Shown: one piece after another, positions 3,563 to 31,286 of the stretch | How positions within the stretch are numbered: position 1 is the stretch's first letter | Layout: each line of letters begins with the position of its first letter | NCBI RefSeq assembly: GCF_029504745.1 | Contig: NZ_JAQFIQ010000028.1 | Coordinates: forward strand, 1-32,000 | DNA: 32,000 bases | Origin: Breznakia sp. PF5-3 | GTDB taxonomy: Bacteria; Bacillota_I; Bacilli_A; Erysipelotrichales; Erysipelotrichaceae | Direction: 5' to 3' | Program-made: the position numbers and the translations under genes | The notes under the pieces: generated by a model | Databases searched by the model: none | Seen by the model: the letters and a program-made list of their open reading frames with translations, nothing else | Told to the model about the DNA's origin: nothing

Positions 3563-3575
3563 GTTCTTTCCTCCG

Positions 3576-4127: not shown

Positions 4128-4697
4128 TTATTTAAATATTATAAAAATATCTTTACTGATGATGTCGCCACCTTTAAATGGTCCCAAAATTCTAGAATCT
4201 CTTGATATTCGTCGATTATCACCACACAAAAAATATTCATTATCTCCTAATACAATAGGTCCATAATCAGAAGTAAAATTAATAGCTCCTGCATTTGTTT
4301 GTTCTTTTACATAATCATCATCAAGAAAGTATTCTTCAACTGGATTTCCATTAACATAAAGGATATCATCCCGATATTGTATCGTTTCTCCTGGTAAACC
4401 AACTACTCGTTTAGCAAGATTCTTTTTTTCACTTTCATCATAGACAGTTACAATATCAAAACGTTTTAGTTCACCAAAATGACGATTCACAATTCCCGTC
4501 ACACCTATCTCTCCATCTTCCAATGTTGGATACATGCTATCGCCATTGACATAAATAGGACGAATAACACAAGTAAGTACCAACAAAGTAACAATTGTAA
4601 TTGGAAAAACAAGTTGAAGTATCCTTAAAATTTCAAGTTTTCGGTTGCTCTTTTTAATATCTTTTTTTATTTCTAAAATTCTATTTGATTGTTTCAT
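4128..4697 (-). CDS. lepB: type I signal peptidase (S26 family, Ser-Lys dyad), 189 aa
   Basis: N-terminal TM helix, GDSMYPTL (catalytic Ser box), AKRVVGLPGE (catalytic Lys box), GDNRRISRDSR box E. GGTGATG RBS before the ATG. Confidence 0.9.
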   Translation of the reverse strand: MKQSNRILEIKKDIKKSNRKLEILRILQLVFPITIVTLLVLTCVIRPIYVNGDSMYPTLEDGEIGVTGIVNRHFGELKRFDIVTVYDESEKKNLAKRVVGLPGETIQYRDDILYVNGNPVEEYFLDDDYVKEQTNAGAINFTSDYGPIVLGDNEYFLCGDNRRISRDSRILGPFKGGDIISKDIFIIFK

Positions 4698-6841: not shown

Positions 6842-6867
6842 GTCGCTTAAAAGCCTTTTAAGGTTCA
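6842..6867 (-). promoter_or_regulatory. ECF-type promoter candidate P3 (bactofilin-LRR-lepB operon)
   Basis: On the - strand: TGAACC-TTAAAAGGCTTTTAAG-CGAC (16-nt spacer), ending 34 nt upstream of ATG 6807. Same geometry as the motif upstream of the sigma gene. Confidence 0.55.
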
Positions 6868-15200: not shown

Positions 15201-18200
15201 GTAGTCACTGTCAGTTACACTGTATTCTACTACATACATTCCTTTTTTCGATGTATCTACAGTTCCTGTTGATATTACTTTACTTGTAATATCTTTATCT
15301 TCTTCATCGTATGCACTAACTCCATATTTGTAGTCATATGCATCTCCAATATTTAAACTCATGAATTCTGGATTCACTGTTAATACTGGTGCATTTCCAT
15401 TAATTACAGTTACTTTAACTTTTACAGTTGTTGATGGATTTTCTTTCACTTGGAAAATAGCATAGTATGAAGTTGAAGTGGTATCAGTTCCGATATTTGC
15501 TTCTTTTACTTCTACTGCTACTGTACTAAAGTCTTTTACTTTCCATCCTTCTGCATTACCCCAATCAATTAAATTATTATTTGTATAATTTTCTGCTTGG
15601 CTTCTTGTAATTGTAATGTTATTTGCTCCAATTGCATAATGTTCTTCTGATGTTAATTCATCTTTTTTCATTACTTTAATTGTAATTGTTGCTTTTGTTG
15701 CTTTTTCTTCATCCACATAGAATGTTGCTGTATAAGTACCTTCAGCTGCCTTGAAATCTGTTGTTTCAAGTTTTACTGTTCCAGCACTCATATCATCACG
15801 ATTAATTGCTACAGCTTTTGATAACTCAATCAGCTTCGTATTGTCAGTGATTGCTTTCGCTTGCTCAACATTCATTACTAAGTTATTAGCTCCGATTGTA
15901 TATTTGCTTCCTGTTTCAATCACATGCTTATCGATTACTTTGATTTTAATCGTTGCTTTCGTTGCTTTTTCTTCATCTACATAGAATGTCGCTGTGTAGT
16001 CACCCTTAGCTGCTGTAAAGTTTGTTGTTTCAAGCTTTACTGTTCCTGCACTCATGTCTTTACGTTTGAATGCTTCTGCTTTTGATAACTCAATCAGTTT
16101 TGTATTGTCACTAATTGCTTTCGCTTCATCTAGTGTCATTACTAAGTTGTTTGCAACTAGTGTATATTTATCTCCGTGTTCAATGACATTTCCATCTTTT
16201 ACTTTGATCTTAATCGTTACTTTCGTCGCTTTTTCTTCATCCACATAGAATGTTGCTGTGTAGTCACCTTCTGCTGCCTTGAAGTTTGTTGTTTCAAGTT
16301 TTACTGTTCCAGCACTCATATCTTTACGTTTGAATGCTTCTGCTTTTGATAACTCAATCAGTTTCGTATTGTCACTAATTGCTTTCGCTTCATCTAGTGT
16401 CATTACTAAGTTGTTTGCTCCAATTGTATACTTATCTCCGTGTTCGATTACATCTTTATCAATTACTTTGATTTTTACTGTTACTTTCGTTGCTTTTTCT
16501 TCATCTACATAGAATGTTGCTGTATAGTCTCCCTTAGCTGCTGTAAAGTTTGTTGTTTCAAGTTTTACTGTTCCTTTGCTTAGGTCTTCTAACTTCCATG
16601 CTTCTGCTTTCGCTTTTTTAACTAACTCACTGTTGTCTGTCATCGCTTTCGCTTCATCGACTGTCATTACAATGTTGCTAGCTACTAGTGTATACTTGTC
16701 GCCTTCTTTGATTACATCGCCATCTACTACTTTCGCGATTGCTTTCACTTCATCTTTTGGATCCGTTGCCGCTTTCACTTTGATAACTACTTCATAATCT
16801 TTGACTTCTGCTTTATATCCACCATTGTCTTTCACCATCAAGTCTGCACTTGGTATTGGCAGTCCTGTTGCGATTGACCATGCTTTTGCTTCTGTCTTTT
16901 CTAAGATTTCAGCATCTGTTCCGGTTACATCATCTTTCAAGATTACATAGTTATGTAAGTCATATGCATAATCTTTTCCTACATACAATCCTACTGCTAC
17001 TACTCTTGATTTCTTAACTGTATTGTAGTCACTGTCAGTTACACTGTATTCTACTACATACATTCCTTTTTTCGATGTATCTACAGTTCCTGTTGATATT
17101 ACTTTACTTGTAATATCCTTATCTTCTTCATCGTATGCACTAACTCCATGTTTGTAGTCATATACATCCCCAATATTTAAACTCATGAATTCTGGATTCA
17201 CTGTTAATACTGGCGCATTTCCGTTCACTACTTTTACAGCTACACGAACTTCTGTTGCTGGTTCTTCTGCTACATAGAATGTAACATAGTATGTTCCTAC
17301 GGTTCCTTCAACATTGTGTGTTTTCACTTTTACAGTTCCTGCACTCATGTCTTTACGTTTGAACGCTTCTGCTTTTGTAAGATCAATCAATTGATCATTA
17401 GTAATACTTTCGGCAACACTTCTTGTGATTTCAATGTTGTTTGCTCCGATTGTATACTTATCTCCATGTTCGATTACATCTTTATCGATTACTTTGATTT
17501 TTACTGTTACTTTCGTTGCTTTTTCTTCATCCACATAGAATGTCGCTGTGTAGTCACCTTTCGCTGCTGTAAAGTTTGTTGTTTCAAGTTTTACTGTTCC
17601 TGCACTCATATCTTTACGTTTGAATGCTTCTGCTTTCGATAACTCAATCAGTTTCGTATTGTCACTAATTGCTTTCGCTTCATCTAGTGTCATTACTAAG
17701 TTATTTGCTCCGATTGTGTATTCATCTCCGTGTTCGATTACATCTTTATCGATTACTTTGATTTTAATCGTTGCCTTTGTTGCTTTTTCTTCATCTACAT
17801 AGAATGTCGCTGTGTAGTCACCTTTCGCTGCTGTAAAGTTTGTTGCTTCAAGTTTTACTGTTCCTGCACTCATGTCTTTACGTTTGAATGCTTCTGCTTT
17901 TGATAACTCAATTAATTTCGTATTGTCACTAACCGCTTTCGCTTCATCTAGTGTCATTACTAAGTTGTTAGCTCCGATTGTATACTTATCTCCGTGTTCG
18001 ATTACATCTTTATCGATTACTTTGATTTTTACTGTTACTTTCGTTGCTTTTTCTTCATCCACATAGAATGTTGCTGTGTAGTCTCCCTTAGCTGCTGTAA
18101 AGTTTGTTGTTTCAAGTTTTACTGTTCCTTTGCTTAGGTCTTCTAACTTCCATGCTTCTGCTTTCGCTTTTTTAACTAACTCATTGTTGTCTGTCATCGC

Positions 18201-21200
18201 TTTCGCTTCATCGACTGTCATTACAATGTTGCTAGCTACTAGTGTATACTTGTCGCCTTCTTTGATTACATCGCCATCTACTACTTTCGCAATTGCTTTC
18301 ACTTCATCTTTTGGATCTGTTGCTGCTTTTGCTTTGATAACTACTTCGTAATCTTTGACTTCTGCTTTATATCCACCATTGTCTTTTACCATGATTTCCG
18401 ATTGTGCAAGTTTTAAACCTGTTTTCGTTGACCATGCTTCTACTTCTGTCTTTTCTAAGATTTCAGCATCTGTTCCGGTTACATCATCTTTCAAGATTAC
18501 ATAGTTATGTAAGTCATATGCATAATCTTTTCCTACATACAATCCTACTGCTACTACTCTTGATTTCTTAACTGTATTGTAGTCACTGTCAGTTACACTG
18601 TATTCTACTACATACATTCCTTTTTTCGATGTATCTACAGTTCCTGTTGATATTACTTTACTTGTAATATCTTTATCTTCTTCATCGTATGCACTAACTC
18701 CATGTTTGTAGTCATATGCATCCCCAATATTTAAACTCATGAATTCTGGATTCACTGTTAATACTGGTGCATTTCCATTAATTACAGTTACTTTAACTTT
18801 TACAGTTGTTGATGGATGTTCTTTCACTTGGTAAACAACATAATAATCTGTTGAAGTAGTATCAGTTCCAATATTCGCTTCTTTCACTTCTACTGCTACT
18901 GTACTAAAGTCTTTTACTTTCCATCCTTCTGCATTACCCCAATTAATTAAATTATCATTTGTATAATTTTCTGCTTGGCTTCTTGTAATTGTAATGTTAT
19001 TTGCTCCAATTGCATAATGATCTTCTGATGTTAATTCATCTTTCTTCATTACTTTAATTGTAATTGTTGCTTTTGTATCTTTTTCTTCATCTACATAGAA
19101 TGTTGCTGTATAAGTACCTTCTGCTGCTTTGAAATCTGTTGTTTCAAGTTTTACTGTTCCTGCACTCATATCATCACGATTAATTGCTACAGCTTTTGAT
19201 AACTCAATCAGTTTTGTGTTGTCAGTGATTGCTTTCGCTTGCTCAACATTCATCACTAAGTTATTAGCTCCGATTGTATATTTGCTACCTGTTTCAATCA
19301 CATGCTTGTCGATTACTTTGATTTTAATCGTTGCTTTTGTTGCTTTTTCTTCATCTACATAGAATATCGCTGTATAGTCACCCTTAGCTGCTGTAAAGTT
19401 TGTTGTTTCAAGTTTTACTGTTCCTGCACTCATGTCTTTACGTTTGAATGCTTCTGCTTTTGATAACTCAATCAGTTTTGTATTGTCACTAATTGCTTTC
19501 GCTTCATCTAGTGTCATTACTAAGTTGTTTGCAACTAGTGTATATTTATCTCCGTGTTCAATGACATTTCCATCTTTTACTTTGATCTTAATAGTTACTT
19601 TCGTTGCTTTTTCTTCATCTACATAGAATGTTGCTGTGTAGTCACCTTCAGCTGCCTTGAAGTTTGTTGTTTCAAGTTTTACTGTTCCAGCACTCATATC
19701 TTTACGTTTGAATGCTTCTGCTTTTGATAACTCAATCAGTTTTGTATTGTCACTAATCGCTTTCGCTTCATCTAGTGTCATTACTAAGTTGTTTGCTCCG
19801 ATTGTATACTTATCTCCGTGTTCGATTACATCTTTATCGATTACTTTGATTTTTACTGTTACTTTCGTTGCTTTTTCTTCATCCACATAGAATGTCGCTG
19901 TATAGTCTCCCTTAGCTGCTGTAAAGTTTGTTGTTTCAAGTTTTACTGTTCCTTTGCTTAGGTCTTCTAACTTCCATGCTTCTGCTTTCGCTTTTTTAAC
20001 TAACTCACTGTTGTCTGTCATCGCTTTCGCTTCATCGACTGTCATTACAATGTTGCTAGCTACTAGTGTATACTTGTCGCCTTCTTTGATTACATCGCCA
20101 TCTACTACTTTCGCGATTGCTTTCACTTCATCTTTTGGATCCGTTGCTGCTTTCACTTTGATAACTACTTCGTAATCTTTGACTTCTGCTTTATATCCAC
20201 CATTGTCTTTCACCATCAAGTCTGCACTTGGTATTGGCAGTCCTGTTGCGATTGACCATGCTTTTGCTTCTGTCTTTTCTAAGATTTCAGCATCTGTTCC
20301 GGTTACATCATCTTTCAAGATTACATAGTTATGTAAGTCATATGCATAATCTTTTCCTACATACAATCCTACTGCTACTACTCTTGATTTCTTAACTGTA
20401 TTGTAGTCACTGTCAGTTACACTGTATTCTACTACATACATTCCTTTTTTCGATGTATCTACAGTTCCTGTTGATATTACTTTACTTGTAATATCTTTAT
20501 CTTCTTCATCATATGCACTAACTCCATGTTTGTAGTCATATGCATCCCCAATATTTAAACTCATGAATTCTGGATTCACTGTTAATACTGGTGCTTTTCC
20601 ATTAATTACGTTTACATCTACCGTTGCTTTTACACTTGGATCTGCATCTACCTTGAAAGTCGCTTTATATAATGATGCAACTCCCTTTACAGTATGTGTA
20701 TCTAAGGATACTGCTACTTCACTACGATCAGATCTCTTCCATCCTTTCGCACCTGTCAACGATTTTAATTCTGTCGCTGCATATGTTGCATTATCTTCGA
20801 TTTTCTTTGCTTCACCTAAGCGAATCTCAATATGGTTTGCTCCTATGATATATTCATCATTTACTTCTACTACATCATATGGTAATACTTCAAAGGTTAC
20901 TTCTTTTGTGATAGTTTCTTCTTTTCCTACACTAAAGACTACCTTATATTCTCCAGCTTCTGCTTTATATCCACCTTTTGATTTAACTTTTACAGGTGTT
21001 TCTGTACCTAAAGATGTATCGATTGCTTTCGCTTTCGCTAAATTAATAAAGTCTTGATCATCTACTACTAATTTAGCATTATCTAACCCGATGATTACAT
21101 CATTTGCACTAATCGTATATAACACTTTTTGAACAATCACTTTCGTTGCTGCTTTAAAAGTAGCATCGTGATAATCTTTTGTTGCTACTGGATTTTTATT

Positions 21201-23771
21201 TCCATTTGCATCTGTTAGGAAAATTTGAACTACATCATTTTCTTTTAATGTTGTTCCTGCAGGGAATGTATAATTCCAAGTATTATCATCATTAATTGTT
21301 CCTTCATTCCCCATTTCAACGCCGTTTAAAGTAACTGTTAATTTTACTGGCTTATCATTATTATGAATAGCATCCAATTCCCATGTTCCTTCTAGCTTAT
21401 TTCCATTTGTATATAATGTGTTTGTTACTGTTACTGGTAATGGAGGTGTTACATCACTTACCGTAACCTTGCCCACTAAAATATCTTCTGCATTCGCAAC
21501 ATGACGCTTTGAAGAAGTTGGATCTTCATCTCCACGCCAAGCTTCCAACACTTCATATGTTGAACCTGGTGTTAAAAATTCATTTAATGGAACTGTATAC
21601 ATCCCACCACGAGGTTCTTCACCATATACTGCTAATCCTGGATTATCATTATCTTTACCAATCGTTTTGGCATAATATGTATTTTGTGTTCCATCTGCTT
21701 TTACTTCTAAAATTTTCACATACACTTCATCTGTCCATGCATCCCTACCATTAAGATCTAAACCTTCTGGTACTCTTGCATGACCAAAAATACTCTTATC
21801 CGCATTTTCTGGGTTTCTCAACTCATCAATTATTGGTGTTGCATTATTTCCACTAATACGTGTATATCCTGCCATTCCTGTACTACCAAATGATGCTGCA
21901 CCACTATTGAAGTCAGGATCTGATGAATTTGCTATTGTAGTAAAGTTTTGACCCGTTAAACTATAGTCAATTAAAACCCAACTTTTCCATGGGTTACCAT
22001 CTACATTAGCTCCTTTTTTCCACACAGCTACATCTGAATTAATAGATTCTAGCTTTGAAGTTGATCCATTTGTTGTTCTAAATACACTTCCTCCACCAGA
22101 ACGGTTGTTTACAAAGTCATAATACAAAATATTTTCGGCATGAAAATCTAGATTTCTACCATTAATTACTGCTGCATCAGCTCCTGCTGTATTACCTTCA
22201 ACAATAAAGATTGCTCCATTTGTTGCATTAATGGTTGCATCAGAAGCATCCATATCCAAAGCACATCCATTTTCTGCAATAATTGATATTGCACTATTTT
22301 TACCATCTACTGAAAACGATGCAGATGATGCTGATTGATATTGAATAGCTTGGTTTCTTGCATCTGAGTTTCCATCCCTTGGTGTTCCATCACCTGCATT
22401 TTGAACTAATACCTGACTACCACCAGATACCTTAAATGCATTTCCATCTCCAAAGAAACGAATCGCTGGTGCGCGACTTCCTTCTTCTTTAACTATCTTT
22501 ACATTCGCTTGATTTGTTACATTAAAAGTTTGGTTACCAACATATCTAAATCGAATTGTTGCACCATAGGTATTATGACCATCTTTTGAGTATAAATTCA
22601 AATTTGATCCAGCACCATCTACGTTAAATTCTCCGCCTCCAGTAACCTGTTGAATAAGAGCTGGCATTGCTCCTTTACTGTTAACCGTTAAGCTTGAGCC
22701 TGAATTTACATAAATCCCTGATGCTTCATTTCCGGCAATCGTTGAACCACAAATAACAACAACTCCACCATCATCTCCACTTGAAGATCCTGTTGATTCA
22801 ATATTTACATGAGAATTATCTTCCACTTTAAATTGAACTCTATTTTGAGTAGTTGAACTTGAATTATTATTAGCAAAAATTGCTTGTTCAGTACCTGTAT
22901 TTATATTTAATGTTGAACCTCCTAATACCTCTAAACCTGTTACTGCTTTTGTACTTGCTACAGGATTTAGACGAATAAGTCCTGCACCAGTATTAGTACT
23001 CAAGTTTACAGTAGCTCCATCTTTAATATATATATAACGTGTATAAATCATTTCATTATAAGTACTTGTTGGCATTAGCCAATTCACTGTACCTGTAAAG
23101 TTAATAACACTGTTTCTTGCCGTTACTAACCTACTGTCACTACTTGATCCATTACTAACATTATGGAAATTAATATTCCAGTTAGCATCATCGGTTTCTG
23201 CAGCAACAACATAATTTGCTCCACTTCTTTGAATCACAATATTTGATAACGTAAATTGTGATGGCGTTGACGCCGTTGCTAACACGAAACTATTTCTTGT
23301 AACGGTTGTAAAATCTAGAGTGAACCCATTACCATCTATTATCAAATTACGATTGACTTCAGGCAAATCATTTGCTGATGCCGTACTACCATCTCTGGTA
23401 ATATGTTTCGTAAATTTAATATGAGAAACATTGCTATCGCTCATAGCAGCTTTTAAAGTAGTCCAATCGCTTACTTCAACTGTTGCTGCTCTTGGTTTCG
23501 CGTCAAAAGTAGAAACATCCTGTGGAGGCGTTTCTTCTTGTTCTGTTTCTTCACTTGTATCTTCTTCTTGAGGCTCTTCTTCAACCTCTGAAGGCTCTTC
23601 TACCTCTTCTTCTGGACTGACATCTTCTGTTATGACATCATCTGCATCAGCAGTTAATAACACATCGCCGACTAAAGATGATACACCTAAAGACGTAAAT
23701 GTCAGTAAAAAACAAAGCATAACTGTGAACAGTGTTTTCTGTTTTTTCCAGAAATTCTTCTTTTTACTCAT
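9246..23771 (-). CDS. giant (4,841 aa) modular cell-surface adhesin-like protein
   Basis: Uninterrupted 14,526-nt ORF with AGGAGGAGGG RBS.
- Signal peptide MSKKKNFWKKQKTLFTVMLCFLLTFTSLGVSSLVG.
- Acidic E/P/T linker.
- About 550 aa rich in N/G/S/T with beta-solenoid-like periodicity (pectate-lyase-like adhesive-domain pattern, e.g. VSDWTTLKAAMSDSNVSHIKF).
- Ig-like region.
- Then 6 DUF5011-like domains interleaved with 88-aa modules.
- Pro-rich stalk PGRKPSVTPPTVSKPS, then AVTTGD, a hydrophobic helix and KRKKEEEE. Confidence 0.95.
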   Translation of the reverse strand: MSKKKNFWKKQKTLFTVMLCFLLTFTSLGVSSLVGDVLLTADADDVITEDVSPEEEVEEPSEVEEEPQEEDTSEETEQEETPPQDVSTFDAKPRAATVEVSDWTTLKAAMSDSNVSHIKFTKHITRDGSTASANDLPEVNRNLIIDGNGFTLDFTTVTRNSFVLATASTPSQFTLSNIVIQRSGANYVVAAETDDANWNINFHNVSNGSSSDSRLVTARNSVINFTGTVNWLMPTSTYNEMIYTRYIYIKDGATVNLSTNTGAGLIRLNPVASTKAVTGLEVLGGSTLNINTGTEQAIFANNNSSSTTQNRVQFKVEDNSHVNIESTGSSSGDDGGVVVICGSTIAGNEASGIYVNSGSSLTVNSKGAMPALIQQVTGGGEFNVDGAGSNLNLYSKDGHNTYGATIRFRYVGNQTFNVTNQANVKIVKEEGSRAPAIRFFGDGNAFKVSGGSQVLVQNAGDGTPRDGNSDARNQAIQYQSASSASFSVDGKNSAISIIAENGCALDMDASDATINATNGAIFIVEGNTAGADAAVINGRNLDFHAENILYYDFVNNRSGGGSVFRTTNGSTSKLESINSDVAVWKKGANVDGNPWKSWVLIDYSLTGQNFTTIANSSDPDFNSGAASFGSTGMAGYTRISGNNATPIIDELRNPENADKSIFGHARVPEGLDLNGRDAWTDEVYVKILEVKADGTQNTYYAKTIGKDNDNPGLAVYGEEPRGGMYTVPLNEFLTPGSTYEVLEAWRGDEDPTSSKRHVANAEDILVGKVTVSDVTPPLPVTVTNTLYTNGNKLEGTWELDAIHNNDKPVKLTVTLNGVEMGNEGTINDDNTWNYTFPAGTTLKENDVVQIFLTDANGNKNPVATKDYHDATFKAATKVIVQKVLYTISANDVIIGLDNAKLVVDDQDFINLAKAKAIDTSLGTETPVKVKSKGGYKAEAGEYKVVFSVGKEETITKEVTFEVLPYDVVEVNDEYIIGANHIEIRLGEAKKIEDNATYAATELKSLTGAKGWKRSDRSEVAVSLDTHTVKGVASLYKATFKVDADPSVKATVDVNVINGKAPVLTVNPEFMSLNIGDAYDYKHGVSAYDEEDKDITSKVISTGTVDTSKKGMYVVEYSVTDSDYNTVKKSRVVAVGLYVGKDYAYDLHNYVILKDDVTGTDAEILEKTEAKAWSIATGLPIPSADLMVKDNGGYKAEVKDYEVVIKVKAATDPKDEVKAIAKVVDGDVIKEGDKYTLVASNIVMTVDEAKAMTDNSELVKKAKAEAWKLEDLSKGTVKLETTNFTAAKGDYTATFYVDEEKATKVTVKIKVIDKDVIEHGDKYTIGANNLVMTLDEAKAISDNTKLIELSKAEAFKRKDMSAGTVKLETTNFKAAEGDYTATFYVDEEKATKVTIKIKVKDGNVIEHGDKYTLVANNLVMTLDEAKAISDNTKLIELSKAEAFKRKDMSAGTVKLETTNFTAAKGDYTAIFYVDEEKATKATIKIKVIDKHVIETGSKYTIGANNLVMNVEQAKAITDNTKLIELSKAVAINRDDMSAGTVKLETTDFKAAEGTYTATFYVDEEKDTKATITIKVMKKDELTSEDHYAIGANNITITRSQAENYTNDNLINWGNAEGWKVKDFSTVAVEVKEANIGTDTTSTDYYVVYQVKEHPSTTVKVKVTVINGNAPVLTVNPEFMSLNIGDAYDYKHGVSAYDEEDKDITSKVISTGTVDTSKKGMYVVEYSVTDSDYNTVKKSRVVAVGLYVGKDYAYDLHNYVILKDDVTGTDAEILEKTEVEAWSTKTGLKLAQSEIMVKDNGGYKAEVKDYEVVIKAKAATDPKDEVKAIAKVVDGDVIKEGDKYTLVASNIVMTVDEAKAMTDNNELVKKAKAEAWKLEDLSKGTVKLETTNFTAAKGDYTATFYVDEEKATKVTVKIKVIDKDVIEHGDKYTIGANNLVMTLDEAKAVSDNTKLIELSKAEAFKRKDMSAGTVKLEATNFTAAKGDYTATFYVDEEKATKATIKIKVIDKDVIEHGDEYTIGANNLVMTLDEAKAISDNTKLIELSKAEAFKRKDMSAGTVKLETTNFTAAKGDYTATFYVDEEKATKVTVKIKVIDKDVIEHGDKYTIGANNIEITRSVAESITNDQLIDLTKAEAFKRKDMSAGTVKVKTHNVEGTVGTYYVTFYVAEEPATEVRVAVKVVNGNAPVLTVNPEFMSLNIGDVYDYKHGVSAYDEEDKDITSKVISTGTVDTSKKGMYVVEYSVTDSDYNTVKKSRVVAVGLYVGKDYAYDLHNYVILKDDVTGTDAEILEKTEAKAWSIATGLPIPSADLMVKDNGGYKAEVKDYEVVIKVKAATDPKDEVKAIAKVVDGDVIKEGDKYTLVASNIVMTVDEAKAMTDNSELVKKAKAEAWKLEDLSKGTVKLETTNFTAAKGDYTATFYVDEEKATKVTVKIKVIDKDVIEHGDKYTIGANNLVMTLDEAKAISDNTKLIELSKAEAFKRKDMSAGTVKLETTNFKAAEGDYTATFYVDEEKATKVTIKIKVKDGNVIEHGDKYTLVANNLVMTLDEAKAISDNTKLIELSKAEAFKRKDMSAGTVKLETTNFTAAKGDYTATFYVDEEKATKATIKIKVIDKHVIETGSKYTIGANNLVMNVEQAKAITDNTKLIELSKAVAINRDDMSAGTVKLETTDFKAAEGTYTATFYVDEEKATKATITIKVMKKDELTSEEHYAIGANNITITRSQAENYTNNNLIDWGNAEGWKVKDFSTVAVEVKEANIGTDTTSTSYYAIFQVKENPSTTVKVKVTVINGNAPVLTVNPEFMSLNIGDAYDYKYGVSAYDEEDKDITSKVISTGTVDTSKKGMYVVEYSVTDSDYNIVKKSRVVAVGLYVGKDYAYDLHNYVILKDDVTGTDAEILEKTEVEAWSTKTGLKLAQSEIMVKDNGGYKAEVKDYEVVIKAKAATDPKDEVKAIAKVVDGDVIKEGDKYTLVASNIVMTVDEAKAMTDNSELVGKAKAEAWKLEDLSKGTVKLETTNFAAAKGDYTATFYVDEEKATKATIKIKVIDKDVIEHGDKYTIGANNLVMTLDEAKAISDNTKLIELSKAEAFKRKDMSAGTVKLETTNFTAAKGDYTATFYVDEEKATKATIKIKVIDKDVIEHGDKYTIGANNIEITRSVAESITNDQLIDLTKAEAFKRKDMSVGTVKVKTHNVEGTVGTYYVTFYVAEEPATEVRVSVKVVNGNAPVLTVNPEFMSLNIGDTYDYKHGVSAYDEEDKDITSKVISTGTVDTSKKGMYVVEYSVTDSDYNTVKKSRVVAVGLYVGKDYAYDLHNYVILKDDVTGTDAEILEKTEAKAWSIATGLPVPSADLMVKDNGGYKAEVKDYEVVIKVKAATDPKDEVKAIAKVVDGDVIKEGDKYTLVASNIVMTVDEAKAVSDNTKLIELSKAEAWKLEDLSKGTVKLETTNFTAAKGDYTATFYVDEEKATKVTVKIKVIDKDVIEHGDKYTIGANNLVMTLDEAKAVSDNTKLIELSKAEAFKRKDMSAGTVKLETTNFKAAEGDYTATFYVDEEKATKVTIKIKVKDGNVIEHGDEYTIVANNLVMTLDEAKAVSDNTKLIELSKAEAFKRKDMSVGTVKLETTNFKAANGDYTATFYVDEEKATKAAIKIKVIDKDVIEHGDKYTIGANNLVMTVDEAKAITDNTKLIELSKAVAINRDDMSAGTVKLETTNFTAAKGDYTATFYVDEEKDTKATIKIKVIDKDVIEHGDKYTIGANNIEITRSVAESITNDQLIDLTKAEAFKRKDMSAGTVKVKTHNVEGTVGTYYVTFYVAEEPATEVRVAVKVVNGNAPVLTVNPEFMSLNIGDAYDYKHGVSAYDEEDKDITSKVISTGTVDTSKKGMYVVEYSVTDSDYNTVKKSRVVAVGLYVGKDYAYDLHNYVILKDDVTGTDAEILEKTEAKAWSIATGLPVPSADLMVKDNGGYKAEVKDYEVVIKVKAATDPKDEVKAIAKVVDGDVIKEGDKYTLVASNIVMTVDEAKAMTDNSELVKKAKAEAWKLEDLSKGTVKLETTNFTAAKGDYTATFYVDEEKATKVTVKIKVIDKDVIEHGDKYTIGANNLVMTLDEAKAISDNTKLIELSKAEAFKRKDMSAGTVKLETTDFTAAKGDYTATFYVDEEKATKVTIKIKVKDGNVIEHGDKYTLVANNLVMTLDEAKAISDNTKLIELSKAEAFKRKDMSVGTVKLETTNFTAAKGNYTATFYVDEEKDTKATIKIKVIDKDVIEHGDKYTIGANNLVMTLDEAKAITDNTKLIELSKAVAINRDDMSAGTVKLETTNFTAAKGDYTATFYVDEEKATKATIKIKVIDKDVIEHGDEYTIGANNLVMTLDEAKAISDNTKLIELSKAEAFKRKDMSAGTVKLETTNFKAAKGDYTATFYVDEEKATKATIKIKVIDKDVIEHGDEYTIGANNLVMTLEEAEAIKNNNELIKLSKAEAFKRKDMSAGTVKLETTNFKAAEGDYTATFYVDEEKDTKATIKIKVKDGNVIEHGDEYTIVANNLVMTLAEAEAISDNTKLIELSKAEAFKRKDMSAGTVKLETTDFKAAEGDYTATFYVDEEKDTKATIKIKVKAKDVIVKGDKYYIGANHITINSHTAETITNDQLIALTEAEAWLKKDLSSAKVEVESHNVIGEAGVYQVTFHVVKEPTTKVTVNVNVTKTALDITAKDFTISHAEASNMNEAKVLELSEADVIINSKTRALAPTKESIAVHQEHLRVVKGSTILGGVYDVKLSVEHEGVEYATVIKVTVTPGRKPSVTPPTVSKPSTAVTTGDDTNLNSLFAMGIISFMSVIYLVKRKKEEEE
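9400..21125 (-). repeat. in-frame coding repeat array: about 39 copies of an 88-aa (264-nt) module plus 6 DUF5011-like domains
   Basis: The canonical module is VIDKDVIEHGDKYTIGANNLVMTLDEAKAISDNTKLIELSKAEAFKRKDMSAGTVKLETTNFTAAKGDYTATFYVDEEKATKVTVKIK (24 close copies, 6 unit-terminal variants, 6 linker variants, 3 flanking divergent copies). DUF5011-like copies are anchored by the EFMSLN Met codons at 20564, 18740, 17186, 15362, 14072 and 12254. Their spacings are 1824, 1554, 1824, 1290 and 1818 nt. Confidence 0.9.
14070..20564 (-). repeat. near-identical higher-order tandem duplication (3,378-nt unit followed by a 3,114-nt unit)
   Basis: Antisense track ORFs at 15751, 16054, 16279 and 16576 are 100% identical in translation to those at 19129, 19432, 19657 and 19954. 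The offset is exactly 3,378 nt. The second unit is shorter by exactly 264 nt, which is one module. Confidence 0.9.
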
Positions 23772-23852: not shown

Positions 23853-23878
23853 GACGCATAAGTCAAAATTCAGGTTCA
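23853..23878 (-). promoter_or_regulatory. ECF-type promoter candidate P2 (giant adhesin gene)
   Basis: On the - strand: TGAACC-TGAATTTTGACTTATG-CGTC (16-nt spacer), followed by TTAC. Located 25 nt after the LRR-gene stop and about 80 nt upstream of ATG 23771. It shares TGAAC...TGACTTAnGCGTCnTAC with P1. Confidence 0.6.
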
Positions 23879-23903: not shown

Positions 23904-26579
23904 TTATTGTAAACCTTCAAGATTGCGTTTTTTCCAAAATTTGCATAATAAACAGCCACTTAAACTAAGTAAAAATAAATTGAATTCTATCCTTTCACCA
24001 TGTCTATCTCCTGCGGAAACAACTGCCTTGCTAAGGGTTTCATTCTCACTTTGCATTGACTTGCTTTTTCCACCAGCGATACTCATAGCATTCTTCGCAT
24101 CAACAACCACCTCTACAGAAAGTTCACCTTCTATAGAATTCCCTGAATAGTCTTGTGCGATCGCTGAAAAAGTTAACTTAAAGACACCTCCTTCTATGTT
24201 GACTTCATTTATTTTTTTTAGTTGTTTTTCATTTACTTTTATAATATTGTCATTACTTTTTTCGTCCAGTTTATGATATATCTTAATTTCCGCTTCCCCA
24301 ATAGCATCTTCTGCTTGTAAAGCTTTCGCTTCATCATACGTCAGATGTATATTTCTACCTGAAATTATCATTTCCTCATTTGGTCCAATTGGATATGTAT
24401 TATTACCATAAACGGTTACTGTAACTTTTTTACTTACTTCATAGTTGTTTGCTTTTATTGTATATAGCAGTTCAAACACACCACCTTGTGATGATACATT
24501 TTTAATCTGCTGCCATTGTTCTTCATGTATGCCAATACTACTACCAACATCAGCAAATCCACTTATTTGTCCATCGGTTGTTCGTTTCATCAAAAATGAG
24601 CGAACGTTAGATTTACTTATTGCTTGACTCTTTGTTAAGCTTTGCACTTCATCATATGTAAATTGCAGATTATCTGCACCAATTACTAGATTTGATAAAC
24701 TATCCATAACACTATTTCTATTTGTTATTAATACTTGAATTGTTTTTGTTCCTTTTTTACCATCCTTATTTATTGCTTCATAATTAACATCATAGATTCC
24801 AATAGCATTAAATTCTGCATTCCCATTCTTAAGTGCATAATGAATATCATCATAATCAATTGCTTGTTTTATTGGTTCTGCACCAATAGTATCCTGTGCC
24901 TTTAACCAATATGCATCCACACGATTTCGAATACTATAATCTATATTCGTATTTCCCAGTTCATATTTTTGTGGTTTCGCAAGAATTACAGGCTGACCAT
25001 GAACTTTTATTTTTCTTTGATATGTTGCACTATAGCCTTCTGTATCTTCGATTGAATAGGTCACTTGATAAGTCCCTGCTTTTTTATTGTTAATATTCGT
25101 AGATGCAACCTCAACATCACTTGTAATATCATTTCCTAAGATATCGTATGCTTTCACATCTTTCATCAAATCATATGTATCGCCTACGTATAATTCTATG
25201 TCATTTGCTGTAAAGCTTGGTTCTTCCCACCAAATAATCGGTTGGGTTACTTCTCCAACATACCATGTATCATCACCAAAATAATTTAATGAATATTGAT
25301 AAACATCATCGGCAGTTGGATCTAGTGTTAATTCAATTGATTCATATGTTTGTCCATCTATTGTCATTGGAATTGTATTCCCATAACGATCTTTCACAAT
25401 TGATGTAACTATAACCTTTCCAGTTGCTTTATCACCAATTAATGAAGTCTCATTTGTATAGCGTTGACCCTGATTATTGTTTGGATCTTGATATGGATCT
25501 GCATCAGAATTATGTCTTACATAAACAACAGCAGAAACATTCGCTAACGCTGATAAATCCGTAACATGATTGTTATTAAGCCAAATTGCTGCATTTCCAT
25601 TTGTAGTAATTGTTGCTAATGGTGATATATCCGTAATATTGTTATTAGATAACTGCAATATATTAATCTTTGTAAGATTTGATAAAGGCGTGATATCGGT
25701 AATATTGTTATGATTTAATATAAGTCGCTTAGCATCTGTATAATGTTCAAAAATACTAATATCTGTAATATTGTTATTTTGAAAATGAAATACTACTTCT
25801 GGAATACAATCTGTTATTGGCAAAGTATTTAAATCATCATCATCAATGCCATTATTATTAAACATAATTTGCTCATCCAAATTTGGAAACCTAGAAGCTG
25901 TTAAAATTGAAAAATCATGAATCTCATTGGTTCCTGTGTTCCAATTATTAAATTCCATCTGAGATAAATATGGATAAACAGTATTGCGCATTGGCTCTAA
26001 ACTTTTAATATTGTGATCATTCAAATAAATATAACGTAGTGAAGTCATATACTCAATCCCTTGAAGATCACGAATACGTTTAGTAGGATTATTTTCAATA
26101 TAATAAATACTATCTACCTGTCCCAAATCCTCGATTGTGAAATTGCTATCTAAACCCTTTTCAAACACTAGGTAATTATAAAAGTTAATATCTGGAACAA
26201 GATCAATCCCTGTAGCAGCACGAGTAGAAATTTGCTTTTGGATTTCTGTAATTTGAATTTCTTGTGTTGCCTTAGTTACCTTATTATCCATTTCATAAGT
26301 AATTGTTAAAGTATATACACCATTTTCTTCAATGATAATAGTAGGATCATTTATATCTAAAATAGTATCTTCAAATACAAGTTCACGAATTCCATATGTT
26401 TGTATTGCTTCTTTCGAGATGTTAATCTTAGCTCTTTGATTATGCAACTCATAGAAAGTAGTATATGTTAACGTAAAATTCTCATCTGCATCAGCTTCAT
26501 TTAAAAGTACAAAACAACTAATTAGTAAATATGAAAACACGATACATATAAATTTTACAAAATTTTGTTTATACCTCAT
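23904..26579 (-). CDS. internalin-like LRR surface protein (891 aa from ATG 26579)
   Basis: Signal peptide MRYKQNFVKFICIVFSYLLISCFVLLNEADA with GAAGG RBS. About 22-aa LRRs (LILNHNNITDITPLSNLTKINILQLSNNNITDISPLATI...LNNNHVTDLSALANV). A DUF5011/Big-like domain (FTANDIELYVGDTYDLMKDVKAYDILGNDITSDVEVASTNINNKKAGTYQVTYSIED). Two modules related to the giant protein's 88-aa module. The C-terminus is VVSAGD plus a hydrophobic segment plus KKRN. Confidence 0.8.
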   Translation of the reverse strand: MRYKQNFVKFICIVFSYLLISCFVLLNEADADENFTLTYTTFYELHNQRAKINISKEAIQTYGIRELVFEDTILDINDPTIIIEENGVYTLTITYEMDNKVTKATQEIQITEIQKQISTRAATGIDLVPDINFYNYLVFEKGLDSNFTIEDLGQVDSIYYIENNPTKRIRDLQGIEYMTSLRYIYLNDHNIKSLEPMRNTVYPYLSQMEFNNWNTGTNEIHDFSILTASRFPNLDEQIMFNNNGIDDDDLNTLPITDCIPEVVFHFQNNNITDISIFEHYTDAKRLILNHNNITDITPLSNLTKINILQLSNNNITDISPLATITTNGNAAIWLNNNHVTDLSALANVSAVVYVRHNSDADPYQDPNNNQGQRYTNETSLIGDKATGKVIVTSIVKDRYGNTIPMTIDGQTYESIELTLDPTADDVYQYSLNYFGDDTWYVGEVTQPIIWWEEPSFTANDIELYVGDTYDLMKDVKAYDILGNDITSDVEVASTNINNKKAGTYQVTYSIEDTEGYSATYQRKIKVHGQPVILAKPQKYELGNTNIDYSIRNRVDAYWLKAQDTIGAEPIKQAIDYDDIHYALKNGNAEFNAIGIYDVNYEAINKDGKKGTKTIQVLITNRNSVMDSLSNLVIGADNLQFTYDEVQSLTKSQAISKSNVRSFLMKRTTDGQISGFADVGSSIGIHEEQWQQIKNVSSQGGVFELLYTIKANNYEVSKKVTVTVYGNNTYPIGPNEEMIISGRNIHLTYDEAKALQAEDAIGEAEIKIYHKLDEKSNDNIIKVNEKQLKKINEVNIEGGVFKLTFSAIAQDYSGNSIEGELSVEVVVDAKNAMSIAGGKSKSMQSENETLSKAVVSAGDRHGERIEFNLFLLSLSGCLLCKFWKKRNLEGLQ

Positions 26580-27759
26580 TACGCACAACCTTCTTTCTCT
26601 TTTGATAGTATAGATAAATAAGTACAATCAATAATGATATAATAAATGGAATTGCACTAATCAACAGTTTGAATGGAAAAGATTTTTCGGCATTAATTTT
26701 AAGTTTAGTAAAAAAATCAATATAGAATCTCTCAGGCGAAGAAACTATTTTACTATCATATTCTGTGTATATACTTCCTTCAATGATTTTATCCACACGA
26801 TAGGATAATCCTGATTTTGATATTTCATCCTTTTGGTACAATGCATACACAACTGTATCCTCTGTGATATCATGCAAATCTTCCGACCACCCTAAAAATG
26901 TATTATTATTTTTCTTCGGTCCTGCAATGGCTTCACCATCATCTCCATAATTTACAAAAGTTTGATAATAAAGTTCATTATCTACATAATATGAAACACG
27001 ATATTGCTTAATCACAAATGTAGCATATAAATTCATTGATTTTTTTATCTTTTCGCCATTATAAAAAAAACCTTTTCCATCTAACTGTGTATTAAAGCCA
27101 AGAAAACGATATCCTTTTTTCGAAACAAGTGGAGTATCTACTACTTGATTATTTTTCACCTTTATTTGTTTCAACAATATCGTTCCATCATAGAAATTAA
27201 CTGTATGAGTTGTATTATTGAATCCAAACTTTCCTCGAAACGCATGTTCATAGGTTTCGCTTTTATCACCCATGGTAATTTCACTAGATAATATTTTCAT
27301 ATCTACACTGATTTTATCTCGTGAAGACCCGATTGTCATAACTTCTAAATCATAAGTTGTTTTCGTACTATTTAAAGCAATCGCTTTTCCATTATTGAGA
27401 TAAGAAGTATATTCATCCTGTGAAGCATTACGACCATTAATTTTTAATACTCCCTTATAATAATCTTTAAATTTGATACCTTCTTTTTCTATAAATAAAA
27501 TTTTAGAGTCAACCACTCCTGAATGATTCACTACATTCATTGTAATTTTAACAGTTGATCCATAAGGAACATCTGTAGTACTCTCTAGGCTATATGCCTG
27601 TCCTGAAGCAGATATTACTTTAGCACTTGAAGATAGTGACAAATCAAAGTAAACCTCTTTTGCTTCCACGCTAAAAATACCAGTGAGTAAACTAAACACC
27701 ACTGATATCGTTAACACTGCAAATGTTACTACCTTTCTTATTGTCCCTGTCTTATTCAT
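26569..27759 (-). CDS. membrane protein with two InlB-B / Listeria-Bacteroides (Flg_new) repeats (396 aa from ATG 27759)
   Basis: Signal peptide MNKTGTIRKVVTFAVLTISVVFSLLTGIFSVEA. HTVNFYDG...KKGYRFLGFNTQLDGKG...NLYATF and YRVSYYVDNE...NNTFLGWSEDLHDITEDTVVYALY fit the repeat pattern. C-terminal TM helix plus QKRKK. The alternative TTG start at 27777 lacks an SD. The stop overlaps the next ATG by 11 nt. Confidence 0.75.
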   Translation of the reverse strand: MNKTGTIRKVVTFAVLTISVVFSLLTGIFSVEAKEVYFDLSLSSSAKVISASGQAYSLESTTDVPYGSTVKITMNVVNHSGVVDSKILFIEKEGIKFKDYYKGVLKINGRNASQDEYTSYLNNGKAIALNSTKTTYDLEVMTIGSSRDKISVDMKILSSEITMGDKSETYEHAFRGKFGFNNTTHTVNFYDGTILLKQIKVKNNQVVDTPLVSKKGYRFLGFNTQLDGKGFFYNGEKIKKSMNLYATFVIKQYRVSYYVDNELYYQTFVNYGDDGEAIAGPKKNNNTFLGWSEDLHDITEDTVVYALYQKDEISKSGLSYRVDKIIEGSIYTEYDSKIVSSPERFYIDFFTKLKINAEKSFPFKLLISAIPFIISLLIVLIYLYYQKRKKVVRNEV

Positions 27760-27766
27760 ATTCGCC

Positions 27767-29086
27767 CTAACTTTCAATATTCACTATATAAGAAATCATA
27801 TTTCCTGATTTATCATAAATAGTTACATAAACCTCTCCTTCAAATTCTTTTTTTATTTCGCCATTTTTTGGAATTGCTATTTTCTCTTCTTTATACAAAA
27901 TATAAGATGAAGCATAATTTAGCCCTAAACCTTCATCTTTTAATTTGACTGATAAAGTTCCATCTTCATAACCAATATCAACCATCTCTGGTGCTTTTTT
28001 ATCAATATTGTCAATCGATATTTTTTGAATATCCTCAGCAACTTTGATTGTATAATCACCATTTCTTTCAACTTGGAATGATAAAACATCATTCTGGATA
28101 TCAAAAGCAATCGCTTCCTTTCCTTGTTTTACATTAACTTTAGATTTCTCAACATTCTTATTTAACTTTGCTTTTACTTCAATTTTCTTATTTGTTGGTT
28201 CTTGATAATAACTTATATCTAGAATTTGTGGTGTCTCTGTATTCAAGTTTTGATATACCACATAACTTCCTGCAGCTCCTAATCCAAGGATTCCTACAAG
28301 TGCCGCTTTTGCTATATCAGATATAAAATTACCTCCTATCGCCGCTGCTGGAACAACCACAGATGCGGCATTGGATCCAGAATGAATAATTTTGTTATAG
28401 ATTTCAGTCGCTCCACTCGTAGACATCTTATTTTTTTGAATAATGTCAGCAAACAATCGATATGCGAATGGGGTAAACGTAAACCCGAAATACTTAGCTG
28501 GAGAATATCCTCGTTCTGCTAATCCAGGTTTAATAACTTTCCTAATTCTTCTAAGTCTTGTTTTTACTGTACCTTCTGGTATCTTTAGTATATAGGCAAT
28601 CTCATTAATTGATAGCCCTTCATAATACTTCAACATCCCGACTTCAAAAAACTTATCAGAAAGTTGATTAAGTTCTGATTTAATCGCATCATAAACTTCT
28701 TTACTTTCTACTTCGTGTACTTGATCATTATCAACACGAATAATTTCTTCTAAATTTGTCTCTTCGTTTAAATCAACTTGTTTTGATCGTTTACGGTAAA
28801 GCGATTGTGAACGATTAAACGCAATCGTGAAAAGCCAAGAATGAAAAGCTTTATTAGACTTTAAAACTTGGATATTTTCAAATACATTCACAAATGTTTC
28901 CTGTACAATTTCTTCTGCATCTGCTGCATTCTTCATCAACTTCAAACCAAAGTAATAAATCGAGTCCCGATAAAAATCATATATCACATTAAATGCTTCA
29001 ATATCACCATTACGAAAACGTTCGATATATTCAACATCGATTTCTCTTCGATTTCCTGTTTTTTTATACTCTTTCTTGGATTTCAT
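27767..29086 (-). CDS. ECF-type sigma-70 family factor fused to a TM segment and a C-terminal extracytoplasmic domain (439 aa)
   Basis: Region 2 at aa ~25-98 (AEEIVQETFVNVFENI..., FHSWLFTIAFNRSQSLYRKR). Region 4 at aa ~138-187 (LSINEIAYILKIPEGTVKTRLRRIRKVI). Hydrophobic segment at aa ~241-278 (IAKAALVGILGLGAAGSYVVY). A beta-rich tail of 160 aa follows. No region 3 and no stop codon between the parts. Confidence 0.85.
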   Translation of the reverse strand: MKSKKEYKKTGNRREIDVEYIERFRNGDIEAFNVIYDFYRDSIYYFGLKLMKNAADAEEIVQETFVNVFENIQVLKSNKAFHSWLFTIAFNRSQSLYRKRSKQVDLNEETNLEEIIRVDNDQVHEVESKEVYDAIKSELNQLSDKFFEVGMLKYYEGLSINEIAYILKIPEGTVKTRLRRIRKVIKPGLAERGYSPAKYFGFTFTPFAYRLFADIIQKNKMSTSGATEIYNKIIHSGSNAASVVVPAAAIGGNFISDIAKAALVGILGLGAAGSYVVYQNLNTETPQILDISYYQEPTNKKIEVKAKLNKNVEKSKVNVKQGKEAIAFDIQNDVLSFQVERNGDYTIKVAEDIQKISIDNIDKKAPEMVDIGYEDGTLSVKLKDEGLGLNYASSYILYKEEKIAIPKNGEIKKEFEGEVYVTIYDKSGNMISYIVNIES

Positions 29087-29115
29087 AAAGTATCGCCCCC
29101 ATCCACTTCATGTAT

Positions 29116-29141
29116 GACGCTTAAGTCAGCGAAAAAGTTCA
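29116..29141 (-). promoter_or_regulatory. ECF-type promoter candidate P1 (autoregulatory, sigma operon)
   Basis: On the - strand: TGAACT-TTTTCGCTGACTTAAG-CGTC (16-nt spacer), followed by ATAC, ending 29 nt upstream of ATG 29086. It lies directly downstream of the terminator that insulates it from grcA. Confidence 0.6.
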
Positions 29142-29237: not shown

Positions 29238-29471
29238 TTACATACCTGCATGCATAGTACGATGTATTACATCATCTTGCTGTTCTTTGGTAAGTTTATT
29301 AAAATTCACAGCATATCCAGATACTCGAATTGTTAATTGAGGATACTTCTCTGGATTTTTTTGAGCATCTAATAATATTTCTCGATTAAATACATTTACA
29401 TTCAAATGATGCCCACCACTTGCTGCATATCCATCAATCATTGTTACCAAATTACTAATACGATCTTTCAT
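29238..29471 (-). CDS. grcA: autonomous glycyl-radical cofactor (GrcA/YfiD-like), 77 aa
   Basis: [54 protein letters not shown] is collinear with the C-terminal glycyl-radical segment of pyruvate formate-lyase, including the RVSGYAV radical-Gly motif. Confidence 0.85.
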
Positions 29472-30407: not shown

Positions 30408-30419
30408 AAGTTGATCCTC

Positions 30420-31268: not shown

Positions 31269-31286
31269 ATATTTACGCTCCTAATT

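Follow-up and report, generated by a model that had tools for sequence, protein, structure and literature searches.

We analyzed a 32,000-nucleotide (nt) stretch of the genome of Breznakia sp. PF5-3 (contig NZ_JAQFIQ010000028.1, positions 1 to 32,000; hereafter, the window), a member of an insect-gut genus of the Erysipelotrichales; the window has a GC content of ~33% and a strong strand bias. It contains a gene for an extracytoplasmic function (ECF) sigma factor that is joined, in one polypeptide of 439 amino acids (aa), to a predicted transmembrane (TM) segment and a tandem Ig-like ectodomain. The open reading frame (ORF), 27767..29086 on the minus strand, is single and uninterrupted and starts with ATG; the annotation of its 100%-identity cluster is 'RNA polymerase sigma factor [unclassified Breznakia]'. 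The parts of the gene, together with two promoter motifs that appear to link it to surface-protein genes, are as follows:

27767..29086, minus strand: sigma fusion gene (ECF sigma, helical linker, TM segment, tandem Ig-like ectodomain), 439 aa, from the ORF and domain matches
28778..28999, minus strand: sigma region 2, aa 30-103 (Pfam Sigma70_r2 at aa 38-102, E 1.6e-11; helices with a predicted local distance difference test, pLDDT, of 92-96)
28514..28705, minus strand: sigma region 4, aa 128-191 (Pfam Sigma70_r4_2 at aa 134-183, E 1.1e-8; pLDDT 77-95)
28355..28513, minus strand: conserved cytoplasmic helical segment, aa 192-244, with the motif G-x-x-P-x-K-Y-x-S-x4-P-x5-F, a candidate cis-acting inhibitory element
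28250..28315, minus strand: single predicted TM segment, aa 258-279 (IAKAALVGILGLGAAGSYVVYQ), Gly/Ala-rich (hydropathy, charge bias, relatives)
28013..28225, minus strand: Ig-like beta-sandwich module 1, aa 288-358 (AlphaFold2, Foldseek)
27770..28006, minus strand: NIDKxxP junction and Ig-like module 2, aa 361-439, with the motifs D-x4-(I)DY-x-(K)SY and YD-x2-GN (AlphaFold2, profile matches)
29116..29141, minus strand: P1, ECF-type motif TGAAC-N17-CGTC, ending 29 nt upstream of the sigma ATG
23853..23878, minus strand: P2, ECF-type motif TGAAC-N17-CGTC, in the gap upstream of a giant ORF

The N-terminal part of the protein also matches Sigma70_ECF (Pfam) and passes the NCBIfam sigma70-ECF superfamily model TIGR02937 (85.8 bits versus a cutoff of 42.9). 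No match to sigma region 3 was found in Pfam or NCBIfam; thus, only regions 2 and 4 are present, as in ECF (group 4) sigma factors. Foldseek matches of region 2 include SigW, AlgU and sigmaE, and the sigma part has its best NCBIfam and Foldseek match in Bacillus subtilis SigW (31-33% identity to 5wuq/5wur), the closest sigma domain of solved structure. SigW is a stand-alone sigma, and the ZAS anti-sigma that holds it, RsiW, is a separate protein. The SigW equivalogs NF007223 and TIGR02948 were not reached (114.5 versus 209 bits and 104.8 versus 243.1 bits, respectively); among the NCBIfam models, the general sigma70-ECF model alone passes, and the specific ones, SigW and others, are far under their cutoffs. 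Judged by these profile scores, the sigma core is SigW-like at the superfamily level only. An AlphaFold2 model built with a 74-sequence alignment has a mean pLDDT of 82.5 for the fusion protein; the loop between sigma2 and sigma4 is disordered, and aa 288-358 and 367-437 form two seven-stranded beta-sandwiches (block pLDDT 95-98), for which Foldseek finds generic tandem pairs of Ig and fibronectin type III modules.

The C-terminal modules are homologous to repeats of giant surface proteins. A profile of aa 280-439 (exhaustive HMMER search) matched 885 proteins at E <= 1e-3. Of the best 150 of these 885 matches, roughly half are 410-465 aa long and carry the module at their extreme C-terminus; giant multi-repeat proteins (1000-4500 aa, 5-32 repeats) are also among the 150. 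Sixty-one giants have an initial Met, and in 54 of these the N-terminus resembles a signal peptide. One giant, P0042, is matched by the family profile at E 1e-73 and carries 19 OmpL47-type repeats (NCBIfam, E 5e-81) as well as a Pfam BiPBP_C match (E 1.3e-24). The link to these models is indirect, via P0042: the window ectodomain itself matches neither OmpL47 nor BiPBP_C at E <= 10, and its only model matches are FlgD_ig (0.041) and the unrelated TIGR02452. The ectodomain profile found nothing significant among the PDB sequences. The idea that the ectodomain is a copy of a module of the adjacent adhesin was ruled out, as the family hidden Markov model, run against the cluster proteins and in a six-frame scan of the window, found the sigma gene alone. 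Two stand-alone relatives from other loci, P0103 (L093:667-1311) and P0120 (L094:6001-6615), have a short N-terminus, a strong TM segment and tandem Ig-like modules, without a sigma domain (TM-Ig2 proteins); the ectodomain of P0103 is 34% identical to that of the adjoining fusion in L093. Such a stand-alone protein could be a decoy or a co-sensor.

Topology was judged by hydropathy. The top Kyte-Doolittle (KD) 19-mer of the fusion protein lies at aa 254-272 with a value of 1.66 (the customary cutoff is 1.6); the conserved core of the hydrophobic segment consists of K260 and ~19 residues, and the preceding aa 241-257 are weakly conserved and gapped among relatives. At the same alignment position, the KD value is >= 1.6 in 55 of the 74 family members and >= 2.0 in 28, with some values above 3; relatives carry unmistakable TM segments. 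Across these members, the mean number of K/R residues is 1.77 ahead of the segment and 0.85 behind it, and that of D/E residues is 0.57 and 1.97, respectively. The single-pass topology with the sigma domain inside and the Ig modules outside is thus well supported by the family-wide hydrophobic maximum, the positive-inside charges, the homology to surface-protein repeats and the stand-alone TM-Ig2 proteins. An alternative in which the hydrophobic stretch does not form a membrane helix, with the beta-sandwiches as a cytoplasmic extension like those of ECF41 and ECF42, is very improbable. The marginal hydrophobicity of the window protein and several close homologues (KD 1.3-1.7, positive insertion sums) and the pLDDT below 50 at aa 244-282, which hold the segment, would fit such an arrangement, but it conflicts with the KD values at this position in the family, with flanking charges that obey the positive-inside rule, with the repetition of homologous modules in signal-peptide-bearing surface proteins, and with the strong TM segments of P0103 and P0120. 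A SnoaL-like or TPR extension of the ECF41/42 type has no Pfam match in the protein, which has a TM segment and an Ig-like fold instead.

The segment between region 4 and the membrane is conserved in length (a spacer with a median of 62 aa from sigma4 to the TM segment, consistent in the 74 family members) and in sequence (information content of 1.71 bits at aa 192-218 versus 1.38 in the sigma2-sigma4 loop). Its helices at aa 196-199, 204-218 and 223-244 have a pLDDT of 71-83 with the 74-sequence alignment, versus 34-39 with 18 sequences. In Foldseek, the deep-alignment model superposes on sigma chains from anti-sigma complexes, namely 5uxx_C of EcfG-NepR (target-normalized template modeling score, TMt, of 0.73; root-mean-square deviation, rmsd, of 4.2 A), 4cxf_A of CnrH-CnrY (TMt 0.72) and 5wur_A of SigW-RsiW (TMt 0.69), and shows no such fit to ECF sigmas bound in the holoenzyme (TMt 0.33-0.43, rmsd 21-27 A), a comparison to be read with the caveat that AlphaFold may give isolated ECF sigmas the closed form regardless and that the linker-sigma contacts were not inspected. 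A short cis-inhibitory element would fit the conserved segment and the closed sigma2/sigma4 model, and the post-sigma4 helices may act as a built-in inhibitor comparable to CnrY or NepR. An earlier, first-pass annotation of this gene, made from the sequence without database searches, had described the same order of sigma2-sigma4, linker, one TM segment and two extracytoplasmic beta-sandwich modules in one ORF, and Pfam, AlphaFold2 and the family hydropathy bear it out. The hydrophobic stretch that it placed at aa ~241-278 is real, but weaker and narrower (core aa 258-279, KD 1.66), and its ~50-aa linker is present, but is not a passive spacer, given the conservation of aa 192-218 and the predicted helices.

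The fusion is a conserved family. There are 17 further full-length homologues (420-450 aa, 29-59% identity, 94-98% query coverage) that keep the whole architecture, and ~57 more full-length representatives of 50%-identity clusters share it. In all 60 proteins retrieved from the best 150 profile matches, we found sigma2-sigma4, the conserved post-sigma4 motif, the hydrophobic segment and the two modules; shorter matches are mostly N-terminally truncated copies of the sigma fusion. Conservation runs across the junction region of the fusion, and no split sigma/anti-sigma version was found among the family members, which answers the question of fused versus split genes that the first-pass annotation had posed. 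Its other concern, a frameshift or stop separating a normal sigma from a normal anti-sigma, was not upheld: the ORF is uninterrupted, and the fusion is conserved down to 29% identity at the coverage given above. A frameshift, an assembly artefact or a pseudogene was excluded with hardly any residual doubt, as the architecture occurs in independent assemblies and metagenomes at identities from 100% to ~21%. Breznakia sp. PF5-3 encodes at least four paralogues and B. pachnodae encodes two; all named members are from Breznakia. One metagenome-assembled genome of Coprobacillaceae carries the fusion and was the sole true member from a profile scan of contigs, the patterns of which were drawn from sigma region 2, so that generic ECF sigmas dominated its matches. 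No description of a sigma-TM-Ig2 family was found in the literature searched on membrane-tethered, membrane-anchored and TM sigma factors and on Firmicutes hybrids, and the main text of the ECF classification 2.0 contains no Firmicutes group with a single TM segment and an Ig-like extension. The family is sizeable and, apparently, undescribed.

Functional evidence comes from the promoter motifs. The exact pattern TGAAC-N17-CGTC occurs twice in the window, versus 0.11 occurrences expected, and 1 of 100 shuffled sequences reached two; P1 and P2 are both on the coding strand and both intergenic. The promoters of SigW are of a similar type, with a GAAC-type -35 and a CGT-type -10 element. In the related loci L001, L003, L006, L008 and L092, the same motif precedes the sigma gene, and analogous second copies precede the large gene farther downstream in L001, L003, L006, L008, L091 and L093. 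The paired sites compare as follows:

L001: sigma side TGAACC...CGTCTAAC, large-gene side TGAACC...TATCTAAC
L003: sigma side ...TCAACTAAT, large-gene side ...TCAACTAAT
L006: sigma side TAAAC-N17-CGTC, large-gene side AAAAC-N17-CGTC
L008: sigma side TGAACGA...TGTCTAAA, large-gene side TGAACGA...AGTCTAAA, both with GTCTAAA
L093: sigma side TAGAACG...TTTCGTCATA, large-gene side TAGAACG...TTTCGTCATA

The two sites of one locus are more alike than the sites of different loci, a co-variation as would be expected of autoregulated, mutually orthogonal sigma paralogues, each of them driving its adjacent adhesin locus. P1 presumably reflects autoregulation, and the sigma factor appears to activate its own gene as well as the adjacent genes for giant surface proteins. 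These paired ECF-type promoters, which on the motif evidence make the strongest functional case, were overlooked in the first-pass annotation. A further candidate lies farther downstream:

6842..6867, minus strand: TGAACC-N16-CGAC (one mismatch), a possible third promoter that lies 34 nt upstream of the bactofilin, BspA-LRR and signal peptidase genes (LRR, leucine-rich repeat)

One-mismatch matches in the window are at the chance level (5 versus 3.1 expected), which makes this third promoter weaker; the CGAC variant of the -10 element is also found in the sigma promoter of L092. A TGAAC-N17-CGAC pattern at 25724-25749 (minus strand) lies within the LRR coding region and is probably due to chance rather than an internal promoter. 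A scan of the window for generic sigma-70 promoters and terminators stayed at the chance level.

The genes that follow the sigma fusion on the same strand, together with a signal peptidase gene at the end of the cluster, are:

26569..27759, minus strand: partner gene (396 aa, counted from the ATG), whose product has a signal peptide, a Listeria-Bacteroides (Flg_new / InlB B-repeat) ectodomain, a C-terminal TM segment and a short basic tail
23904..26579, minus strand: LRR / Ig-like surface protein, ~890 aa (Pfam LRR_4, Bact_surface_Ig-like; gene order as in L003)
9246..23771, minus strand: giant ORF for a 4841-aa surface protein that has a signal peptide and a C-terminal TM anchor, and also Ig-like repeats and an adhesive domain of the pectate-lyase-like type
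4128..4697, minus strand: type I signal peptidase (S26), with the motifs GDSMYPT and KRVVGLPGE (catalytic Ser and Lys; Pfam Peptidase_S26, E 2.2e-38)

The partner gene starts 7 nt past the sigma stop codon. Its product, a type I membrane protein, lacks a cytoplasmic anti-sigma domain and gave no anti-sigma match in Pfam or NCBIfam, in agreement with the earlier statement that no separate anti-sigma gene follows; against the PDB, its profile matched the InlB B-repeat alone (E 0.007). The ATG of the LRR gene overlaps the partner end by 11 nt, which places the LRR gene in the same operon, and a gap of ~130 nt separates it from the giant gene for the 4841-aa protein, the presumed main target of the sigma factor. 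Farther downstream lie genes for a DUF1307-like lipoprotein, a Cthe_2159-like protein, a bactofilin-domain membrane protein, a BspA-LRR protein and the S26 signal peptidase. The order of sigma fusion, partner of ~390-480 aa and large surface protein recurs in L001 and L003; in L008 and L011, the sigma fusion is followed by a partner-sized ORF as the last feature of the stretch compared, and in L006, L091, L092 and L093, large surface-protein genes come straight after the fusion. Each paralogue locus that was examined encodes a large surface protein directly downstream. The partner homologues directly downstream of the fusion in L001, L003 and L008 are 27-35% identical to the window protein, and the 393-aa ORF of L011 corresponds to it by position and size.

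We propose that the fusion is a one-polypeptide transmembrane signalling sigma factor, i.e., a sigma/anti-sigma hybrid that is released by regulated proteolysis, and we assign to this reading a probability of roughly 0.55. In the resting state, the cytoplasmic sigma domain would be kept inactive by its membrane tether, and the helices next to sigma4 would probably assist by stabilizing the closed sigma2/sigma4 arrangement. The trigger would be an extracytoplasmic event at the Ig-like ectodomain, with a ligand or surface contact as candidates, or, alternatively, an altered interaction of the ectodomain with the co-transcribed partner or the adhesin. A site-1 cut outside the membrane would then be followed by intramembrane cleavage by a site-2 protease, and the freed sigma would take RNA polymerase to the TGAAC-N17-CGTC promoters. 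The targets would be its own operon (a positive feedback), the 4841-aa adhesin gene and, perhaps as a third, the accessory operon ending in the signal peptidase gene. To the observed architecture, its conservation and the paired promoters, this reading adds autoinhibition, the nature of the signal and proteolytic release, which we infer by analogy with IutY and RsiV/RsiW. Regulated proteolysis is favoured because IutY of Pseudomonas putida (ECF243), the sole TM-fused ECF sigma that has been dissected, is a sigma/anti-sigma hybrid activated by Prc and then by RseP, which frees the sigma domain (PMC5411451; PMC8999054).

Several points, in addition to the caveat on the closed model, weigh against regulated proteolysis of a hybrid sigma. 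Linker aa 190-260 contains no anti-sigma domain (ZAS, FecR, RskA, DUF4179 etc.) at Pfam E <= 0.1 or NCBIfam E <= 0.01; the same residues include no Cys and hence no ZAS (HxxxCxxC) motif, and a zf-HC2 match is likewise absent. The biological-scale insertion sum of the window TM segment is unfavourable (+4.3 kcal/mol), which, together with the KD value of 1.66, makes this segment marginal. No dedicated site-1 or site-2 protease partner was identified, the RasP/S2P homologue of the genome not having been searched for, and, by sequence inspection, an A-x-A signal-peptidase site after the TM segment is inconsistent across the family. The partner gene is missing at the paralogue loci L006, L091 and L092. 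Finally, the promoter assignments are sequence patterns.

The first-pass annotation had reasoned that a tethered sigma factor would need either proteolytic release or action at the membrane, and these are indeed the two options to be weighed. In the second of them, the uncleaved sigma would stay tethered and recruit RNA polymerase to the membrane, so that transcription, translation and export of the adhesin would be coupled; control would be exerted by a conformational or oligomeric change through the TM segment, as in regulators of the ToxR/CadC type. The long, length-consistent spacer (median 62 aa) would provide the reach, the immediately adjacent target genes encode exported proteins of very large size, the Gly/Ala-rich TM segment contains small-xxx-small motifs (GILGLGAAG) that are typical of helix-helix packing, and no dedicated protease can be assigned. 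Nevertheless, we consider permanent tethering unlikely: IutY, the TM-fused ECF sigma that has been studied, requires proteolytic release, the modelled closed sigma2/sigma4 form is incompatible with core binding, so that an activating step would still be needed, and no precedent of a working membrane-anchored sigma was found in the literature searched.

The recurrence of signal peptidase genes bears on another form of processing. S26 genes with intact Ser/Lys motifs are also present at L091:3318-3860 and L093:1319-1894, the latter directly upstream of the fusion. Such an enzyme may serve the export or assembly of the giant proteins, or the processing of the fusion; from gene neighbourhood, a role of the cluster S26 as the processing enzyme of the fusion is speculative. 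In RsiV, signal peptidase is the site-1 protease. By the same logic, the fusion could be a pro-sigma with an internal signal-anchor that is constitutively cut by type I signal peptidase, possibly the cluster S26, with the Ig domain being shed and the remnant cleared, as a signal peptide is, by the site-2 protease; control would then be mainly transcriptional, or would be exerted by ligand-gated access of signal peptidase, as in sigmaV-RsiV. Consistent with this, the Breznakia clade has a short hydrophobic core with small residues behind it (LGLGAAG-S), much like the h/c-region of a signal peptide, and catalytically competent S26 genes recur (window 4128-4697, L091, L093). In L093, the order is DUF1307 lipoprotein, TM-Ig2, S26 signal peptidase and sigma-TM-Ig2 fusion, which places the S26 gene between the stand-alone TM-Ig2 gene and the fusion, and a sigma-type motif lies upstream of the first gene of this cluster. 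However, many family members have a long, strongly hydrophobic TM segment with no obvious A-x-A site, and the S26 gene of L091 is located among pilin-like genes (FctA, DUF7601), suggesting a role in adhesin or pilus assembly; we consider constitutive cutting of a pro-sigma quite unlikely.

Elements of these readings can be combined into a surface-assembly checkpoint that would sense adhesin or partner occupancy, or host contact, through an ectodomain of the repeat type seen in giant adhesins elsewhere, with S26 as a gated site-1 protease and/or with a tethered sigma that transcribes the 14.5-kb adhesin gene at the membrane and so couples transcription directly to export. We regard this combination as doubtful and put little weight on it; if true, each giant adhesin locus would have a private one-component sigma switch, each paralogue with its own promoter variant.

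Regulated release of a hybrid sigma, the reading we prefer, has relatives among known systems. TM-tethered ECF sigmas are not essentially uncharacterized, as the first-pass annotation had it: besides the release of IutY by Prc and RseP, SCO4117 has been partly studied, and ECF48, ECF53 and ECF263, the last with 5-7 TM helices, have been catalogued. IutY resembles the Breznakia fusion in combining a cytoplasmic ECF sigma, a single TM segment and an extracytoplasmic domain in one chain, with no separate anti-sigma gene. It differs in being proteobacterial and in having a FecR-type anti-sigma domain, a signal from a TonB-dependent receptor and a role in siderophore uptake, whereas the Breznakia fusion has neither FecR nor another recognizable anti-sigma domain, no outer membrane to work across, an Ig-like ectodomain, and giant adhesins as apparent targets. 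Members of ECF48/52/53, e.g., SCO4117 of Streptomyces coelicolor (ECF52), have a long TM-containing C-terminal extension, for which proteolytic activation has been proposed (PMC8999054). They share with the fusion the C-terminal extension with TM helices and an extracytoplasmic part. Theirs, however, contains a ZAS-like zinc finger and, in ECF52, also a Pro-rich region and a carbohydrate-binding domain, and they are actinobacterial; the Breznakia fusion has no ZAS motif, a different ectodomain and comes from a different phylum. TM-fused ECF sigmas are thus a known kind, and, in profile and motif searches, the present family fails the defining domain tests (no FecR, no ZAS, no Cys in the linker).

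Two other systems are similar in logic. In cellulolytic clostridia, SigI/RsgI pairs are paralogous sensor/sigma modules with extracellular binding modules, each controlling genes for large extracellular proteins. Like them, the Breznakia fusions occur as several paralogues per genome, and one Breznakia paralogue locus encodes dockerin-bearing proteins; unlike them, sigma and sensor form one chain, whereas SigI is not of the ECF type and RsgI, which has an RsgI_N anti-sigma domain, is a protein of its own. The likeness to SigV/RsiV lies in a possible succession of type I signal peptidase and site-2 protease, as S26 genes recur in the Breznakia clusters. RsiV, however, is a separate anti-sigma with a lysozyme-binding domain, and here the S26 link is one of gene neighbourhood only. 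The regulated intramembrane proteolysis of RsiV is the subject of PMC9044953.

An ECF sigma fused to its own membrane sensor is the most compact transmembrane route to RNA polymerase, and only IutY, from a Gram-negative bacterium, has been dissected. The present Gram-positive family is tractable, with a compact, well-modelled ectodomain, an apparent regulon next to the gene and several paralogues with co-varying promoter variants. It could be used for studying the inhibition of a tethered sigma and its release, and perhaps for building orthogonal one-protein sensor/sigma switches. It also points to how Erysipelotrichales of the insect gut may time the production of costly adhesins of up to 4841 aa.

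Several minor observations concern the surroundings. The C-termini encoded by 9246-23771, 23904-26579 and 4714-5637 carry [T/A]-G-D (VTTGDDTN..., VSAGDRHG... and INTGDSIK..., respectively) and then, 5-8 residues on, a TM segment with a basic tail behind it; no LPXTG motif was found in these three surface proteins, and the [T/A]-G-D motif may be a non-canonical sorting or anchoring signal. The gene at 5641-6807 (minus strand) encodes a 388-aa protein with an N-terminal TM segment and a C-terminal bactofilin domain, and L010 has a bactofilin gene near an unrelated giant with OmpL47 repeats. The lipoprotein gene at 8689-9144 (minus strand) is related (31% identity, E 6e-12) to the DUF1307 lipoproteins encoded immediately upstream of fusions or TM-Ig2 genes in L003, L093 and L094. 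Directly upstream of the sigma gene are three tandem paralogues of the DegV/FakB-like fatty-acid-binding type at 29553-31973 (minus strand) and an autonomous glycyl-radical cofactor gene at 29238-29471 (minus strand; GrcA3-like, 149 bits versus a cutoff of 158), all of them probably unrelated to the sigma gene. The far end of the window has a housekeeping context, with a copper-type P1B ATPase with two HMA domains (187-2700, plus strand) and a rubrerythrin (3014-3643, minus strand). Finally, a G-rich element (GGGGGCGA, GAGGGCGA or AGGGCAA) is located 5-9 nt ahead of the start codon in the sigma genes and in the partner gene:

29087-29105 and 27760-27775: G-rich element, also upstream of the sigma ATG in L003, L006, L091 and L093

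The element looks like an extended Shine-Dalgarno sequence common to these loci.

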